A DNA stretch of 38,472 nucleotides from Promethearchaeota archaeon (GCA_008080735.1 SHMW01000035.1:1-38472); one strand, 5' to 3'; positions 22,091 to 29,584 are shown, numbered from the stretch's first letter. Made by a program: numbers and translations. Notes: generated by a model from the sequence alone, not told the origin.

Positions 22091-22752
22091 GCTTGAAAAT
22101 ATTATTTTTCGATGAATTAAGAGGTTTTTATAAGTCTAAGATTATGATTATTCTTTGGGTTGGTTTACCTATTTTGTCAATTATTTTGAATTTATTAAGG
22201 TTGGACACTGAAGGGGTTCCGCTCTCTTATTTTGTAGGGCTATTCATAGCAAGCATTGGAGGAACACTCTCATCAGTCATGTTAAGTACTTCCATCACTA
22301 GCGAAATAAACAGACAAGTGTTTAATTTATTTCTGATTAGACCGGTTAAGCGAGAAAGTCTATTAATTGCTAAATATTTGGCAGTATTTTCTTGTCTAGT
22401 TATTGCAACCCTTATCACGTTAATAGTTGGAGTGTTTATTGATTGGATTACTACAGGAATACCTCAATCAATTGTGCTCATACAAAGTATGGAGAGTTTA
22501 GGTTTTAGTTTAGCTGCGATGAGTATCTCATGTTCTGTGGGGATTATAATTGGAATTTCAGTAAAAAATGTGGCAGCATCTGCAATTCTTTCTGTTTATG
22601 TGGGAAATCAGTTTTCATTAATTTCAATATTACCATCAGTTTTTCTCCCTGGTATACTTAATCCTTTGATTTTCTCGGGAAGTATGGGAATTCTATTAAC
22701 TGCTCTATTAATGGGGATTGGAATTATAATATTTAAAAATAAAGAATTATGA
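22087..22752 (+). CDS. ABC-2 type permease
   Basis: About 6 TM helices, E........L..PV.R..LL..K motif; 4-nt overlap with the ATPase gene. Confidence 0.88.
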   Translation: MSLKILFFDELRGFYKSKIMIILWVGLPILSIILNLLRLDTEGVPLSYFVGLFIASIGGTLSSVMLSTSITSEINRQVFNLFLIRPVKRESLLIAKYLAVFSCLVIATLITLIVGVFIDWITTGIPQSIVLIQSMESLGFSLAAMSISCSVGIIIGISVKNVAASAILSVYVGNQFSLISILPSVFLPGILNPLIFSGSMGILLTALLMGIGIIIFKNKEL

Positions 22753-22951
22753 TTTCTCTCTTAAATTTAAAAATTAATAATTCACTAAACTTACACCCCC
22801 GATTATGAGCATATTACACAATCCCAAATATGCTTAATTTTTACATTTTTTATATGTTTTTTCAAGAACACGTCAATAATATTTGTAATTTAATATAACG
22901 CAAATCTTGTATAGAATAGTGAGAATAAGTAAATAGGTAAAAAAAACAAAA

Positions 22952-23779
22952 ATGATGAATGAGTCTGTTCTTTCTGGAATCAAAATAATTAAACATATAG
23001 ATCTTACCCAAAAAGATTTTATCAATCCAGTTGCAATATTAGGAATGCCTGGTATTGCGGATGTGGGAAAATTCGCAATTGATACATTGATTGGACAGCT
23101 AGGTGCGCAAAATTATATGGATATAATCTTTGATGATTATCCAGCAGGTGCTATTGTCGATGATAGTCTATTATCTGCGCCAAAAGCGGAGATTTTATTT
23201 TGGAAAGATCCCCAAGAAAAGCGTGATATCATCTTAATAACTGCAGACGCGCAGAGTCTTACTCCTAAAGGGATATATAAAATTTCAAATTTTTTAACGG
23301 AAATTATATATAATTGTGGCATTAAACTCACAATTGCGCTTGGTGCATATCCTATCAACGGTAATAAATTGAATAGTAAAATTCCACGAATTTTTGCTAG
23401 TTCAACAAGTAAAGATTTACTGAGTACGTTTTTGGAAAAAAATAACTGTGAAAGGATTCAAAAAGGAGTAATTATTGGCGCTAATGGATTAATTCCCACC
23501 TTGGCAAAGGCGCGTTTTAATACGGATGGATTAGTCCTATTAGCGGAAACAGATAATATTGCTGTAGTTAATGAGGATATTACGGATCTAAAAGCGTCAA
23601 TAACCTTACTAGAAATGATTAAAGAATCATTTAATCTACCCATAGAAAAAAGATATTCCTTAGACAATTTAGAAGATATTTCAAAAAATCTTCAATCTAA
23701 ACGCGAGAAATTAGAAAAAGATCTGGAAACCTTACAAATAATGGATACCGAAGAAAAGCGAAAATCACTCTATATCTAA
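22952..23779 (+). CDS. PAC2/Pba family proteasome assembly chaperone with C-terminal HbYX
   Basis: GMPGIADVGK, LGAY, IIGANGL, LLAET motifs; ends in LYI. Confidence 0.87.
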   Translation: MMNESVLSGIKIIKHIDLTQKDFINPVAILGMPGIADVGKFAIDTLIGQLGAQNYMDIIFDDYPAGAIVDDSLLSAPKAEILFWKDPQEKRDIILITADAQSLTPKGIYKISNFLTEIIYNCGIKLTIALGAYPINGNKLNSKIPRIFASSTSKDLLSTFLEKNNCERIQKGVIIGANGLIPTLAKARFNTDGLVLLAETDNIAVVNEDITDLKASITLLEMIKESFNLPIEKRYSLDNLEDISKNLQSKREKLEKDLETLQIMDTEEKRKSLYI

Positions 23780-23998
23780 ATATTAATATTTCTTCTTCCC
23801 CCTCTTTTTAAATCATCACATTTTAGCTATAGGAATTCTTTCGATGAATTTCACGAAGAGCATTACTCCTCTTCTATTTTTATCGATAAATTTTTTAGAT
23901 ATAAAAAATAGTATAATATAATAAGAGATTCTCATTCACATTTTTTAATACTACTTCGAAAGAATCTCGTAAATTTATAAATATACAAGTGAAATATT

Positions 23999-24142
23999 TT
24001 GGAATATGTTTGCGCCCGTTGTGGAAAAGAGGTAAGTAGAAAAGAATTAAGTGCCCTCCCAGGCATAAAATGTTCCCATTGTGGATATCGGATATTATAT
24101 AAAAAGCGACCTGAGATTATAAAAAGACTCAAAGTAAAATAA
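23999..24142 (+). CDS. rpoP: RNA polymerase subunit Rpo12 (RpoP), 47 aa; absent from the ORF track
   Basis: Manual translation from TTG: MEYVCARCGKEVSRKELSALPGIKCSHCGYRILYKKRPEIIKRLKVK*. TTTATAAATA TATA box at about 23974. Confidence 0.93.
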   Translation: MEYVCARCGKEVSRKELSALPGIKCSHCGYRILYKKRPEIIKRLKVK

Positions 24143-24197
24143 TTGCATCAAAATTTCTCTTTTTATTCAGTGCGGAACAAAAATTTGTCACTTTATT

Positions 24198-25115
24198 TCA
24201 AATTACAGAATCAATGCTAAGATAATTCATTAATTCTTTGTATCTGTTCCGAATTGTCGTCTCTGTTACGTTCGCGATTTCTGAAATCTCTCTTTGTGTT
24301 CTACGTTCACCTTGTTCCATCGCTGCAAGGTATAATGCTGCCCCAGCTAAGCCCGTTGGTGCTTTCCCAGTTGTTATGCGGTGCTTTTTAGCCAGATAAA
24401 TTAATTCTGCTGCTCGATTTTGCGTTTTACCAGAGAGATTCAGTTCCGCACAAAATCGGGGGATGAAATTAATTGGGGACGAAACGGTCAGATTAATCTT
24501 AAGCTCATGGATTATTAATCGATAACATCTAGCAATTTGTTTTTTATCAATAGAAGTGAATTCAACAAAATCATCAAGCGTTTTTGGGATTTTGTTTAGT
24601 CTGCATGCGAGATAAACTGAGGCGATGAGCATAGCCTCTATGGAGCGCCCTCTAATTAACCCCTTAATTGCCATTTTTCTGTAAATATGTGCCGCTGTTT
24701 CTTTAAGATCTCTTGATAAACTCAATTGAGAAGATAATCTGTCTAATTGATTCATTGCATAGGCCAGATTTCTGTCAATAGATCTATTCGTTCTGGTTCG
24801 CGTATTCCATTTTCGCAATCTATAGATCTCTGCTTTTTTCTTTGGAGAGAGTTTCTGTCCAAATGCGTCCTTATTTTTCCAACCAATGATAGTACTAAGA
24901 CCTTTATCGTGCAAGGTAAGTGTGGAGGGGGCACCCACACGGACCTTTCTATTCGCCTCCTCTGTAGAAAATGCTCGCCATTCAGGTCCCGAATCGATCA
25001 GTCTTTGGTTTATCACTAATCCGCAATCATTACATATTATCTCTGCTCTCGAATTATCGATTATTAAATTACAATTTCCACATTCTGGACATTGATTAGA
25101 ATTATCTTGAGACAT
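24198..25115 (-). CDS. tfb: Transcription initiation factor TFB
   Basis: CPECG..C..CG Zn ribbon, ID.GPEWRAF, LHDKGLST, two cyclin repeats, TETTIRNRYKE. Confidence 0.97.
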   Translation of the reverse strand: MSQDNSNQCPECGNCNLIIDNSRAEIICNDCGLVINQRLIDSGPEWRAFSTEEANRKVRVGAPSTLTLHDKGLSTIIGWKNKDAFGQKLSPKKKAEIYRLRKWNTRTRTNRSIDRNLAYAMNQLDRLSSQLSLSRDLKETAAHIYRKMAIKGLIRGRSIEAMLIASVYLACRLNKIPKTLDDFVEFTSIDKKQIARCYRLIIHELKINLTVSSPINFIPRFCAELNLSGKTQNRAAELIYLAKKHRITTGKAPTGLAGAALYLAAMEQGERRTQREISEIANVTETTIRNRYKELMNYLSIDSVI

Positions 25116-25418
25116 AAATACCTCTATGATAAAAATTTCAATTCTTTAATTTCAATAATTATTGTCGAGCTTTTAAATGTTTCCGTTTTAAATAATTTTC
25201 CAGTTAATAAACTGACTAATATTAATTAGGTATTATAGGAATTAGCTTTTTAAATTGGTAGAAGGTTTTTGTCGGAGCCGTTGAGAGCCTAAATAGAAAA
25301 AATTAATTTAAGTCTAAATAGATTATTTTGTTAAAAATTGTATGCTTAAACTAAAAAGGGCGCTAATTATGAATATTAATCAAAAATTTATAATTATCTC
25401 CTAAATTTCAACTAAATA

Positions 25419-25853
25419 ATGCAACCTTTTCCAAGTACCCATGGGAAACATTGTACCTTGCGAACATTTAAGTCTGAGTGCCCTTCTTGCGGAGCAGATA
25501 TATTATATTGGGAATGTACACATGGTTGTAAGGTATTTTTTGAATATCCTCCATATGGGAAATTAATTAAACATAGATGTAAAAAAAATAAAGGTAAAAA
25601 TATAAGAAAAAAGTACGACATAATAGTTAAAACACCTAAGGGTTTATTAGAAAACACCTCAAAACATTGTCACGCATGTGGTAAAGTATTTAAAAATCAA
25701 CAAAGTTTAAATGATCACATAACTCAGATGGAGAAATGTGATTATTTTCATCAGATTTTATCAGCTAAAGGTTCTGAGGATCAAAAATCGGAAAAAAAAG
25801 AAAATAAATCCTATAAACCTAAATTTGGTCAGATAAATGTGAAAAGGAAATAA
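25419..25853 (+). CDS. Hypothetical multi-zinc-finger basic protein
   Basis: H..HC, CPSC, C.H, H.C clusters plus C..CGK.F.....L..H (C2H2-like). Confidence 0.75.
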   Translation: MQPFPSTHGKHCTLRTFKSECPSCGADILYWECTHGCKVFFEYPPYGKLIKHRCKKNKGKNIRKKYDIIVKTPKGLLENTSKHCHACGKVFKNQQSLNDHITQMEKCDYFHQILSAKGSEDQKSEKKENKSYKPKFGQINVKRK

Positions 25854-25961
25854 TAAATTATTAATACCTATTTTAAAATAATTTGTATAGATAATTTTAA
25901 TAATATTAATTTAGATAATACAATTAAAACAAATTACAATTTTAGGATAAGAATAATAAAT

Positions 25962-26579
25962 ATGCCATCAAGTCCAGAAGAAGCTATCAATAATCTCATG
26001 CAAAAAGACCCGACAATCATAGCTGCGACAGTAATAGAGGGAAATGATAATATTGTATATCAGACAGATAATTGGGATATAAGCCCTGACTTAGATCGGG
26101 TTCTCTCCAGTTGGCGTGGTCAGAATGCCCAATTTATAAAAATCTCAGGAATAAAATATTCTATGCTTCAGTGCACATCTGAAAGAATGGCAGCTACCTC
26201 GATAAAAGGAGAGGGGAGTATAGTTGCCGCAAAGGATGAAGAACACAAATTGATTGCCTACGTCTCTCCAGAAGGTGATATGAGGGGCGCTATGATGGAT
26301 ACCGCTCGTGCTGTTGGCGATATGAATTCAAGCAAACCATATATGGATGAGAGTTCTCAACTCGGAAAAGATATGGGTGGGGCGGTACAATCACAAGGGG
26401 GAGGTGCTGTTAGCATTGATCCGCAATTAAAGGCAGAAATAGAGTCATTTCTACAATGGGTAAAAGATGATGAGGGTTTAGCGGGATATATAAGATATTA
26501 TTTACAACAAGATAATGCACAAATAATTTCTCAATTATCTCAAGTCTATACTGATTTACGGCAACTTTTTGGAGTTTAA
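25962..26579 (+). CDS. Asgard profilin with a C-terminal helical extension
   Basis: aa 1-~122 show Loki-profilin motifs (QTDNWDIS.DLD, I.GIKY.M...T.ER...T.I.G.G.I, IAYV.P), followed by a G/Q/S linker and a ~55-aa helical tail. Confidence 0.82.
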   Translation: MPSSPEEAINNLMQKDPTIIAATVIEGNDNIVYQTDNWDISPDLDRVLSSWRGQNAQFIKISGIKYSMLQCTSERMAATSIKGEGSIVAAKDEEHKLIAYVSPEGDMRGAMMDTARAVGDMNSSKPYMDESSQLGKDMGGAVQSQGGGAVSIDPQLKAEIESFLQWVKDDEGLAGYIRYYLQQDNAQIISQLSQVYTDLRQLFGV

Positions 26580-26700
26580 AAACCCCATTCTAACTATTTC
26601 TCTCAACTAAATAGAACATTTAGATTTTAAATTCCATAATAGTACTCTTTTTCCTTGTTTTATCCATAAATTTAAAATTTTTCTTAGATTATCGAATATC

Positions 26701-27783
26701 ATGACATTGAACGTGGGTGTTGTAGGTGCAAGTGGATTTGCAGGTGGTGAAACGGTTAGAATATTATCTCAACATCCAAAAGTAAATTTAAATTACATAA
26801 CATCAAGAAGATTAGTTGGGAAATATTTTCATTCTATTTATCCAAATCTTAGAAATCTTGTAGATTATCAGTTTGAGGAATATAAAGTAGAAACTGCTCA
26901 AGAGAAATGTGATGTGATTTTTCTCGCCACACCGCATGGCGTTTCACAAGATATGGTGTCTTCTCTATTAGAAGTAGGGTTAAAAGTTATTGATCTAAGC
27001 GCTGATTTTCGATTAAAAAACCCAATTATATATAAAAAATATTACAAAAAAGAGCATAGCCATCCGGAGTTATTTTCAGATGCTGTATACGGATTACCAG
27101 AGTTGCATCGGGATCAAATTAAGGACGCATATCTGGTTGCGGTTGCGGGTTGCCATGCTTCAAGCGCAATTTATGGGTTATTCCCCTTAATTAGAGAAGG
27201 CGTGATAGAGCGTTCTAATATAATTATTGATTCGAAGACTGGATCATCGGGTTCAGGAGCAAGCGTAAATGAATCCACTCACCATCCAATTAGAGCAAAC
27301 AGTATACGCCCTTATAAAATGACAGGACATCGTCATACCGCAGAAATTGAACAAGAGTTGAATTTGCAGATAAGTGATACCAAAATTAAAGAGCCAGAGG
27401 TAAAAGTAGGTTTTTCAGCTCACGCAGTTAATCTAGTTCGTGGGATTTTGTCAACTTCTCATGCGTTTATTGCGGAAGATGTAGAAGTAAGTAATAAGAT
27501 GTTATTTAAGACCTATCGAAAAGCTTTTAGAGGTGAGCCGTTTTTACGCTTAATAAATCAAAATACAGGTGTATTTCGACTACCTGACCCTAAAATTATT
27601 GCGGGTACAAATTATTGTGATGTAGGATTTGAATTAGACCATCATTTGAATCGTATTGTGGTATTATGTACTCTTGACAATCTAATTAAAGGTACTGCCG
27701 GTAACGCGATCCAATCTATGAATATTATGTCCCGATTTCCGGAAAATATGGGTCTAGAGTTTTCTGGTTATTTTCCGAGTTAG
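26701..27783 (+). CDS. argC: N-acetyl-gamma-glutamyl-phosphate reductase / LysY-type reductase
   Basis: GASGFAGGE, ATPHG, IDLSADFRL, YGLPEL, AGC (catalytic), SGSG, HRH..E, RGIL, DNL.KG.AG.A.Q.MN. Confidence 0.92.
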   Translation: MTLNVGVVGASGFAGGETVRILSQHPKVNLNYITSRRLVGKYFHSIYPNLRNLVDYQFEEYKVETAQEKCDVIFLATPHGVSQDMVSSLLEVGLKVIDLSADFRLKNPIIYKKYYKKEHSHPELFSDAVYGLPELHRDQIKDAYLVAVAGCHASSAIYGLFPLIREGVIERSNIIIDSKTGSSGSGASVNESTHHPIRANSIRPYKMTGHRHTAEIEQELNLQISDTKIKEPEVKVGFSAHAVNLVRGILSTSHAFIAEDVEVSNKMLFKTYRKAFRGEPFLRLINQNTGVFRLPDPKIIAGTNYCDVGFELDHHLNRIVVLCTLDNLIKGTAGNAIQSMNIMSRFPENMGLEFSGYFPS

Positions 27784-27889
27784 TGGGAATTTTAAATTTT
27801 TAATGCAAATATATTGGATTTATTAGAAAAGAACAGCTTTATAAACTAGTTCTGTTTCAAATATTATTTTCAATTAAGGTGATTTTAGT

Positions 27890-28693
27890 ATTTCTGGGTA
27901 TATTGGCAAAAGTATTAGATTAGAACGTATTATGAATAGGGAGAATAGAAGAACTATAATTATTCCCATGGATCATGGGCTTACTGTAGGCCCAATCAAA
28001 GGCATAGAAAAGGACCTTGGAGAAAAGGTGAATAAGATAGCATTAGGAGGTGCAAACGCAGTTCTGGGACATATTGGAATCCCGCTCTATGCTCACCGAG
28101 GATATGGCCCAGACATCGGATTAATTCTTCATCTTTCTGGGTCAACATCTATTAGTCCTTCAAAAAATTATAAAGTGTTGGTAAATACAGTGTTGGAGGC
28201 AGTAAAGGTTGGCGCGGATGGGGTTTCACTACATATAAATATTGGAACGAATTCGGATCCCGAAATGCTTGAGATTTTGGGAACAATTTCAAGAGAATGC
28301 AGAGAGTTCGGAATGCCCTTACTTGCGATGATGTATCCTCGAGGTGATAATATTCAAGATGAATACGCTGTAGAAGTGGTAAAAATTGCTGCGAGAGCGG
28401 CGGCAGAATTGGGTGCGGATATTGTCAAAACAAATTGGACTGGGGATCCTGATTCGTTTAAAGAAGTCGTAGATGGTTGTATGGCCCCAGTCATAATTGC
28501 TGGAGGTGAAAAGGGAGGGACCCGAGAGATTTTAGAAATTACTAAACAATCAATAGATGTTGGCGGGGCAGGAGTAGCATTTGGGAGAAATGTATTCCAA
28601 GCGGATAATCCTACAAATTTAGTGCGAGCGTTGTATCTTATCGTCCATAAGGATTATTCAGTCGATGAAGCTATGAGGGAAGCAGAATTATAG
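27890..28693 (+). CDS. DhnA-type class I aldolase / ADH synthase (AroA'-like)
   Basis: PMDHG, GAD.VS.H.N.G, AMMYPRG, ELGADIVKT, AGG, GRNVFQ. The conserved GKxIRLERI lies upstream of the ATG at 27932; start inferred at ATT 27890. Confidence 0.88.
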   Translation: MSGYIGKSIRLERIMNRENRRTIIIPMDHGLTVGPIKGIEKDLGEKVNKIALGGANAVLGHIGIPLYAHRGYGPDIGLILHLSGSTSISPSKNYKVLVNTVLEAVKVGADGVSLHINIGTNSDPEMLEILGTISRECREFGMPLLAMMYPRGDNIQDEYAVEVVKIAARAAAELGADIVKTNWTGDPDSFKEVVDGCMAPVIIAGGEKGGTREILEITKQSIDVGGAGVAFGRNVFQADNPTNLVRALYLIVHKDYSVDEAMREAEL

Positions 28694-28731
28694 GAATATT
28701 TCTACTTTACATTAGAAGGGAAATTACAATC

Positions 28732-29109
28732 ATGAAACTAATTCTTGATAAATCTTTTCAAGTTGATAAATTAAAACTTTACTTAAAGCTATTTAAACTT
28801 CACAAAAGTTATTTAGCATTCTTATCAGATCAGAAGGAGATGGGGATAGGAGATGTGACTTTAGGGAGTCCTCAGAGGATAAAGGGGGTTAAATCTACTT
28901 CATCTACATATCATTTATTTGGAATTCAACAGAAGTTACTGAGCTCTGTTATAACTAAGAGGATGACAAATTTCTTAGATATGCCCGTTCTATTGCTCTT
29001 ATTTATCAAGGAAAAGGTCGAGGAAAATGAAATAGCTAGACCTATAGTCGATTTTATCAACGAAAATTTGAAAGATTTAAGAGAATCTGAGGAGCTTTTG
29101 GATTATTAA
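28732..29109 (+). CDS. Putative PAC4/PAC3-fold proteasome assembly chaperone
   Basis: 125 aa; beta-strand pattern followed by S...LFG.....S..I..R......PVL, resembling PSMG4 by eye. Confidence 0.55.
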   Translation: MKLILDKSFQVDKLKLYLKLFKLHKSYLAFLSDQKEMGIGDVTLGSPQRIKGVKSTSSTYHLFGIQQKLLSSVITKRMTNFLDMPVLLLLFIKEKVEENEIARPIVDFINENLKDLRESEELLDY

Positions 29110-29115
29110 AAAAAA

Positions 29116-29261
29116 TGCAGAGAGAGGGATGTGCTCTTATGGGACATTGTATTCCCACAACTTGAACCCCCGTACTCCTATGAGAATGGATCTTGAGTCC
29201 ATCACCGGTAATCCATACATTAAAATTTAAATGTATATTGACCGGGCTTGGTTATCTCTGC
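29116..29261 (-). tRNA. tRNA-Leu(CAA) with two introns: D-loop 21/22 (29208-29237) and T-loop 58/59 (29131-29161); CCA not encoded
   Basis: GCAGAGA/UCUCUGC+A acceptor, AUGGA-CUCAAGA-UCCAU anticodon arm, long variable arm, GGGGG-UUCAA|AU-CCCUC T-arm. Confidence 0.92.
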
Positions 29262-29280
29262 ATTTTATTAAAAAAATATA

Positions 29281-29508
29281 TTACATAAAGACAAACATAA
29301 GGACAAACATAACAACCATCATTCCAACGAGAAAGACGATTTGATATCTACTTTGCTTTTTTTGTTTCTTCTGTTTTTGTAAATACGAGTCTCTACAGTT
29401 TTGGCTGCAAAACTTTCTTTCTGGAGCCATAGCTTTTCCGCATACAGGACAATGCTGATGTGGACCCCATTTTTTTTGGATCTGGTTTTTCCATGAAGAG
29501 TGTGACAT
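29281..29508 (-). CDS. DUF2116 Zn-ribbon protein with C-terminal TM helix
   Basis: H.HCPVCG...FCS..C, basic helix, hydrophobic extreme C-terminus. Confidence 0.85.
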   Translation of the reverse strand: MSHSSWKNQIQKKWGPHQHCPVCGKAMAPERKFCSQNCRDSYLQKQKKQKKQSRYQIVFLVGMMVVMFVLMFVFM

Positions 29509-29584
29509 TTTAGTTTTTATTGAATTGTTCTATTATATTATATTGGATAATCTTCATTATTAAAAAAAATTTATTAAAAATAAG

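Follow-up and report, generated by a model that had tools for sequence, protein, structure and literature searches.

The window analysed in this study is a stretch of 38,472 nucleotides from a member of the Promethearchaeota. In this window, an uninterrupted ORF runs from the ATG at 25962 to the stop codon at 26577-26579, and the opposite strand of 25962-26579 is closed by many stops. The start is consistent with the homologs, most of which open with MP-x-(D/S/T)-P in an alignment of 22 sequences. The product is a profilin that carries an additional C-terminal helical domain (the tail), and the three parts named in the initial annotation, a profilin domain, a flexible linker, and a helical tail, are all present in this ORF. 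The genes and features of the locus are as follows.

24198..25115, minus strand: TFB/TFIIB-like gene, 305 aa; in all 15 loci compared, a homolog adjoins the zinc-finger/profilin pair.
25419..25853, plus strand: C2H2-like zinc-finger gene, 144 aa, directly upstream of the profilin gene and ending 108 nt before its start.
25962..26579, plus strand: tailed profilin gene, 205 aa plus stop codon; computed mass 22.5 kDa, pI 4.4.
25962..26327, plus strand: Asgard-type profilin domain, aa 1-122 (phmmer against PDB; AF2 and Foldseek).
26328..26369, plus strand: semi-conserved short motif, aa 123-136, after the C-terminal helix of the profilin domain (alignment).
26370..26411, plus strand: variable Gly/Ala/Ser/Gln linker, aa 137-150, predicted to be disordered.
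26412..26576, plus strand: three-helix tail, aa 151-205, conserved; predicted pairing domain.

The 205-aa protein had 448 database homologs. The best 120 of the 448 were 198-211 aa long, and nearly all of these 120 aligned across the entire query. The mean pairwise identity was 0.74 in the tail, 0.71 in the profilin domain, 0.46 in the motif at aa 123-136, and 0.15 in the linker. Twenty tail positions were invariant among 22 sequences with overall identities down to 62%. Conservation on this scale is well outside what chance would produce. The tail is under purifying selection: its conservation equals or exceeds that of the profilin domain, in contrast to the drifting linker; the initial concern that the tail might be unconserved was thus not borne out (74% pairwise identity, 20 invariant positions). 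When the tail was modelled alone using 84 diverse sequences, AF2 gave a confident three-helix model (pLDDT 92; H154-168, H173-182, and H186-203). The tail is acidic (pI 4.2), and in a profile search, the tail profile matched the window at 26409-26573.

The linker differs in length between homologs, always in frame in the alignment, and ranges from 2 to 137 aa with a median of 19 among 149 tailed profilins. Its variable length and sequence, its 15% identity, and a pLDDT below 50 at aa 125-151 of the full-length AF2 model agree with its description as flexible. In the 22-sequence alignment, the motif at aa 123-136 follows the pattern PY-x-D/E-x3-Q-L-G with Y127 and G135 invariant, and the Y...(Q/K)(L/F)G pattern was also present in sister-family orthologs. 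This segment (26328-26369) might itself mediate binding.

Fifteen loci from three families of the order were compared, and in 14 of them the zinc-finger gene lies immediately upstream of the profilin gene on the same strand. In the window, its product gave sub-threshold zf-C2H2 matches only, and the gap between it and the profilin gene is very AT-rich. The product of the 305-aa neighbour we take, from a reading of its sequence, to be transcription factor B (TFB); the names argC and DhnA-type aldolase-like are likewise presumptive and were read from the sequences. The gene order that is shared across the family (22362-29561 of the window compared with L049-L062) begins with a ca. 270-aa gene, TFB on the opposite strand, the zinc-finger gene, and the tailed profilin gene, and continues with a variable gene, a DhnA-type aldolase-like gene, and a 125-aa gene. 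argC follows the profilin gene directly in the window and in two other loci, and after one intervening gene in a fourth locus. In the 6.0-Mb genome of a sister family, the gene immediately after the tailed profilin gene encodes a 245-aa protein that has transmembrane helices in its C-terminal part (L060:2752-3489, minus strand). With that protein as a query, no counterpart was found in the source genome, and no such gene is adjacent to 25962-26579.

To define the N-terminal domain, we compared the protein with solved structures. In a phmmer search of all PDB chains, only Asgard profilins were matched (5zza_P, E 6.8e-12; 7pbh_A, 4.2e-11; 5yed_A, 1.6e-08; 5zzb_A, 2.7e-08). The AF2 model built from 22 homologs had a pLDDT of 81-87 for aa 1-120, and its helices and strands follow one another as expected for profilin. 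In the Foldseek search of this model against PDB, the top match was Odin profilin 5zza_P, solved with rabbit actin (TMt 0.87, rmsd 1.4 Å, 32% identity). Loki profilin-2 and -1 came next, ahead of dozens of eukaryotic profilins. Profilins or profilin-like proteins filled all of ranks 1-48. The possibility raised at the outset that this domain is a roadblock/longin relative was rejected, since the first roadblock protein, Roadblock3 of MK-D1 (9jue), appeared only at rank 49 (TMt 0.58, rmsd 7.4 Å), and the assignment to the profilin fold holds. Pfam Profilin (PF00235) scored 19.1-20.7 bits against a cut-off of 25 bits and is therefore sub-threshold; because the phmmer matches to solved Asgard profilins were clearly significant, the protein is best regarded as a member of the Asgard branch that is poorly covered by the Pfam Profilin model.

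Odin profilin (5zza) and Loki profilin-1/-2 (5yed, 5yee, and 5zzb) share the fold of the N-terminal domain (TMt 0.80-0.87, 27-32% identity). However, these solved profilins are single-domain proteins of 119-136 aa, whereas the protein described here has an extra linker and a conserved 55-aa tail. The structures reportedly come from Akil & Robinson 2018. By eye, the helices at aa 5-15 and 107-121 contain no Trp, Tyr, or His, and judging from these residues, the N-terminal domain would lack the eukaryotic mode of polyproline binding via terminal-helix aromatics. Loki and Odin profilins bind rabbit actin in crystals and show no polyproline binding (PMC8410842). We infer that the tailed profilin paralog binds actin as well.

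The source genome assembly (4.15 Mb, 140 contigs, 93% complete) contains three copies of the tail, namely those of the tailed 205-aa profilin, a 231-aa paralog, and a free 53-aa ORF. It also contains three profilin domains (205-aa, 231-aa, and a short 147-aa protein) and five actin-family genes in six matched stretches, including a Lokiactin-like gene at 444 bits. The genes concerned on other contigs are listed below.

Contig C98, L076:2931-3626, plus strand: second tailed profilin, 231 aa; its linker is polybasic (KGNKQKLSRQKKDVRDK), and it carries the same tail.
Contig C98, L076:1497-2909, plus strand: 470-aa protein without Pfam family; ends 22 nt before the 231-aa profilin gene.
Contig C26, L003:1486-1647, plus strand: free 53-aa mini-protein, a stand-alone copy of the tail.
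Contig C20, L006:428-1375, plus strand: actin-family gene, 315 aa (Pfam Actin, E 1.2e-24).
Contig C20, L006:1414-1857, plus strand: short profilin, 147 aa, 26% identical to the 205-aa protein.

The 231-aa paralog is 39% identical to the 205-aa protein in the profilin domain, and its gene and the 470-aa gene look like an operon. The 53-aa mini-protein, with a mass of roughly 5.7 kDa, is small enough for gene callers to miss; an actin-family gene lies ca. 7.5 kb from it on the same contig. The short profilin gene is located 38 nt downstream of the 315-aa actin-family gene, in which only the first ca. 180 positions of the Pfam Actin profile were matched well, and the two are a possible pair of an actin-related protein and a profilin.

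The initial annotation had called for a search for other fusions with the tail alone, and such a search recovered Ras-family GTPases in addition to the free 53-aa copy. In an exhaustive search of 1.84 billion representatives, aa 151-205 were found at the end of other proteins, although a word-based search for tail carriers of 360-2000 aa returned none. Four tail-bearing proteins had Ras-family GTPase domains, and one of them also had a sub-threshold match to a gelsolin repeat. Two of the fusions, from two genomes of the same family, are as follows.

L063:1681-2739, minus strand: Ras-family GTPase and tail fusion, 352 aa; degenerate Ras domain followed by residual profilin sequence and the tail.
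L064:1114-2538, plus strand: Ras-family GTPase and tail fusion, 474 aa; Ras, a proline-rich stretch (KPPIPSPPLPLKPPGAP), and the tail with Cys knuckles on either side.

The fusions of GTPase and tail are sporadic among the relatives, and none was found in the source genome. In a tree based on 60 columns, the GTPase tails nested within the profilin tails of their family (SH-aLRT 94), which fits recent domain shuffling out of a profilin gene. Homologous Zn-ribbon-like genes (CPIC...C-x-H-x-F...D-x-NF-x-VR-x-Y) without a Pfam family were found near the polybasic-linker profilin in the source genome (L076:4769-5623, plus strand) and near a GTPase-tail gene in another genome (L064:2631-3170, minus strand).

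To examine the distribution of the tail, its profile was run against 400 genomes sampled across the phylum, including the source genome. It matched 153 of the 400, all of them from one order; by family of this order, it was found in 133/134, 1/1, 14/14, and 4/4 genomes. In this 400-genome sample, the tail was found neither in the seven genomes of the other orders of the class nor in the remaining phylum. With the copy from the source genome as a query, the free mini-protein was detected in 130/134, 1/1, and 12/14 genomes of three families, and in family f1 it is 53-54 aa long with a fixed start. In the fourth family, the tail profile revealed a free copy of 52-55 aa in 4/4 genomes and a tailed profilin of 216-219 aa, likewise in 4/4 (one is 238 aa from the first possible start). 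The usual genome of the order encodes one or two tailed profilins together with a free tail copy of 50-55 aa. Because the tailed profilin and the free tail are present in all four families, the pair is order-wide.

In the tail tree (60 columns), the mini-proteins of the two large families grouped in a single well-supported clade, separate from every tail (SH-aLRT 99). The mini-protein is therefore an old paralog and not a repeatedly arising gene fragment. The mini-proteins of the fourth family grouped with the tails of their own family (support 87), for which independent origin, gene conversion, or co-evolution is possible.

Searches for known relatives of the tail were negative. Pfam searches with the tail alone and with 84 tail sequences gave noise only, NCBIfam gave one irrelevant sub-threshold match, and the tail profile found nothing credible among PDB sequences, the best match being a 16-residue stretch of Pcc1. 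Foldseek with the tail model returned no match in PDB at E up to 10. The best Z of VIA-align against 48,161 chains was 5.2, from unspecific helical matches below the level that is meaningful for helical bundles. A search of the ESM Atlas by features gave no usable match for the tail; the search by shape gave only three clusters of Promethearchaeota "hypothetical proteins" of 189-214 aa, which are the tailed profilins themselves.

SAM domains and the dimerisation/docking (D/D) domain of PKA RII are small helical modules that pair with themselves and are flexibly linked to varied proteins. By analogy, the tail resembles them as a small helical module on flexible linkers that is predicted to pair with its own kind, but a relationship to the tail is not detectable. 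The SAM domain (PF00536 and PF07647) was rejected as a candidate: there was no match to the tail at E up to 10 or 1, none of the three tail copies was matched in a genome-wide scan with SAM_1/SAM_2, and the SAM fold is a five-helix bundle, whereas the tail model has three helices. Neither SAM nor D/D structures occurred among the structural matches of the tail in Foldseek and VIA (best Z 5.2). The villin headpiece (PF02209) had no Pfam or Foldseek match to the tail and was not among the top 50 rows of VIA, where even the best Z, 5.2, was unspecific. The tail is an undescribed domain on a real, conserved, order-specific profilin variant.

We predicted the complex of the tail with the 53-aa mini-protein of the same genome. 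The score was 0.85 (0.85, 0.85, and 0.84 in the three runs), compared with 0.00 as the best of three for the controls. In the calibration, 58 of 80 solved complexes and 2 of 110 mismatched pairs scored this high; these counts apply only roughly here because custom alignments were used. The runs shared at least 94% of contacts, the pLDDT of the partner was at least 91, and the predicted interface comprised ca. 100 residue pairs. The contacts with the lowest error were reciprocal at equivalent residues (1:52–2:12 and 1:19–2:44; 1:48–2:9 and 1:16–2:40). In the predicted complex, F163 and Y196 of the tail thereby face Y44 and F12 of the mini-protein. This reciprocity points to a pseudo-two-fold dimer, and the same face could equally make tail-tail dimers. 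Since near relatives of a true partner pass as well, the score does not distinguish tail/mini-protein from tail/tail pairs, nor does it single out the pairs that form in cells.

Since no similar complex has been solved, recall of a known structure is unlikely to explain the prediction. The model of the tail monomer was already confident (pLDDT 92), so the partner is not needed to explain the fold, and as the interface takes up ca. 62% of the tail, the invariant residues are not enriched there (14 of 20). Small hydrophobic helical modules may co-fold in silico. At the level of modelling, these results support pairing of the tail with the free mini-protein. The initial proposal, in which the tail serves to oligomerise the profilin or to tether it to a partner or membrane, is strengthened in silico as far as pairing with a partner is concerned (0.85 vs 0.00), whereas direct membrane binding is unlikely for a tail as acidic as this one (pI 4.2).

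To our knowledge, only single-domain profilins of Asgard archaea and eukaryotes have been studied biochemically. The initial annotation took Asgard profilins to be essentially single-domain, which is roughly right; however, ProGel fusions (bioRxiv 10.1101/2025.11.30.690169) and N-terminal extensions (PMC8410842) have been published. Like the tailed profilin, the Heimdall and Thor profilins (6yrr and 7pbh; PMC8410842) are Asgard profilins with an appended segment, which in their case modulates activity. Their extension consists of ca. 20 disordered N-terminal residues and occurs in ca. 5% of Asgard profilins (PMC8410842), whereas the appendage described here is a folded C-terminal domain that also occurs on other proteins and free. 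According to the supplement of a preprint, ProGels are profilin-gelsolin fusions of Thor, Heimdall, and Odin archaea (bioRxiv 10.1101/2025.11.30.690169). They too are composed of an Asgard profilin domain and a second module, but this module is a gelsolin domain, whereas no gelsolin domain was matched by Pfam in the whole tailed profilin or in its aa 125-205 at E up to 10. The tail-less profilin-bearing proteins of ca. 400 aa that were returned by the exhaustive search may be ProGels. We found no description of a C-terminal domain on Asgard or Loki profilins in the literature; a mention in Akil & Robinson 2018, Akil et al. 2020 (review), or Ponlachantra et al. 2023 is possible.

A tailed profilin has probably already been recorded in the proteome of Lokiarchaeum ossiferum. 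The sister-family genome G138 (single contig, 6,035,313 bp) encodes a tailed profilin of 207 aa with a computed mass of 22.83 kDa at 3.13 Mb. In the preprint, the profilins of L. ossiferum are B35_Pro1 (GNAMCCOK_02671, UYP46361.1, 22.82 kDa) and B35_Pro2 (GNAMCCOK_02587, 14.47 kDa) (bioRxiv 10.1101/2025.11.30.690169). Given the agreement in mass (22.83 vs 22.82 kDa) and a position that fits the rank of the locus tag, we read B35_Pro1 as the tailed protein; judged solely by its mass and its place in the genome, it is the probable ortholog of the tailed profilin.

In Supplementary Tables 2-3 of this preprint, the mean log2 intensity of B35_Pro1 (19.5) was higher than that of the short B35_Pro2 (17.4) (bioRxiv 10.1101/2025.11.30.690169). 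In the Lokiactin co-IP of the same source, B35_Pro2 was enriched (log2 ratio 1.07, p 0.0018), whereas the enrichment of B35_Pro1 was not significant (log2 ratio 0.31, p 0.17) (bioRxiv 10.1101/2025.11.30.690169). In the sections examined, B35_Pro1 is named simply profilin, and the discussion there deals only with Pro2 and does not mention the tail. The initial annotation had envisaged a localised actin delivery or nucleation factor, and the only in-vivo datum found, the co-IP of the apparent ortholog, points the other way.

The best explanation of these observations and its rivals overlap in part. The explanation that we prefer, to which we give roughly even chances, is that the protein is a genuine, actin-monomer-binding profilin of the Asgard type and that its tail serves for homotypic pairing (docking), as the modelled complex suggests. 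The tail and a second copy of it would form an intimate, roughly two-fold symmetric helical dimer. The possible partners would be the free mini-protein of 50-55 aa, the tail of a second profilin molecule, and the tail of the paralog with the polybasic linker; in some relatives, the tails borne by Ras-family GTPases could be further partners. Acting through the flexible linker, such pairing would yield a bivalent profilin or connect the profilin with another regulator, and the polybasic-linker paralog could reach anionic lipid. The free mini-protein could serve as a cap or competitor, which would set the share of profilin that is paired. We infer that the tail would also have consequences for actin dynamics.

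In eukaryotes, polyproline-based recruitment delivers profilin-actin. Since polyproline binding is lacking in the published Loki and Odin profilins, the tail is perhaps the order's own recruitment route. More tentatively, and with considerable doubt on our part, the tail and the mini-protein may constitute a lineage-specific system of homotypic coupling that joins profilins, Ras-family GTPases, and occasional gelsolin-bearing proteins and replaces polyproline-based recruitment, with the 53-aa protein as a dedicated cap or competitor.

The alternative that survives best, which we nevertheless consider rather unlikely, is that the tail docks onto a receptor without a tail of its own, for which Lokiactin filaments, a membrane protein, or some other hub would be examples. 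In that case, the predicted dimer would merely reflect paralogy, and the mini-protein would compete for the receptor. The strong conservation and the portability of the tail would suit any shared receptor, the conserved upstream zinc-finger protein is a candidate partner, and the complex score is also passed by close cousins of true partners. However, a candidate receptor was not identified in this analysis, and the individual versions of this explanation are met by contrary observations: the acidity of the tail (pI 4.2) argues against direct binding to anionic lipid, and a filament-binding headpiece is at odds both with the lack of a Pfam match to the villin headpiece or another family and with the co-IP data, in which the apparent ortholog was not enriched with Lokiactin.

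It is quite improbable that the protein has kept the profilin fold, lost the handling of actin, and acts in another pathway, e.g. small-GTPase signalling, in the manner of roadblock/longin relatives. The sub-threshold Pfam Profilin score, the occurrence of the same tail on Ras-family GTPases, and the non-significant Lokiactin co-IP of the apparent ortholog are consistent with such a change. On the other hand, transient profilin-actin complexes are easily lost in co-IP, roadblock ranks far lower in Foldseek, and the nearest proteins by sequence and fold are profilins that were crystallised with actin (5zza, 5yee, and 5zzb). Least probable, and very much so, is that the tail is an intramolecular regulator that folds onto the profilin domain and masks its actin- or lipid-binding face until released, because, even though the flexible linker permits fold-back and the data of the preprint show the presumed tailed form of L. 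ossiferum to be less enriched with Lokiactin than the short profilin, the tail also occurs on Ras GTPases and free, so that its role is independent of the profilin domain, and the full-length AF2 model has no confident inter-domain packing (pTM 0.55, linker pLDDT below 50).

Profilin is among the few actin regulators that are common to Asgard archaea and eukaryotes. In the order that includes the 6,035,313-bp genome, the conserved profilin is the tailed form, which, by the data of the preprint, is apparently the more abundant one in the proteome of L. ossiferum. Since the module is confined to one order, it is a lineage-specific elaboration and not one of the ancestor of eukaryotes. If the tail is a pairing module, as we prefer to read it, this order would have a concrete and testable means of linking profilin molecules with one another, with a lipid-binding paralog, or with small GTPases, and a conserved and easily overlooked 53-aa protein would be assigned a role. 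Such a coupling would be relevant to the positioning of actin assembly in cells that crawl and have actin-filled protrusions.
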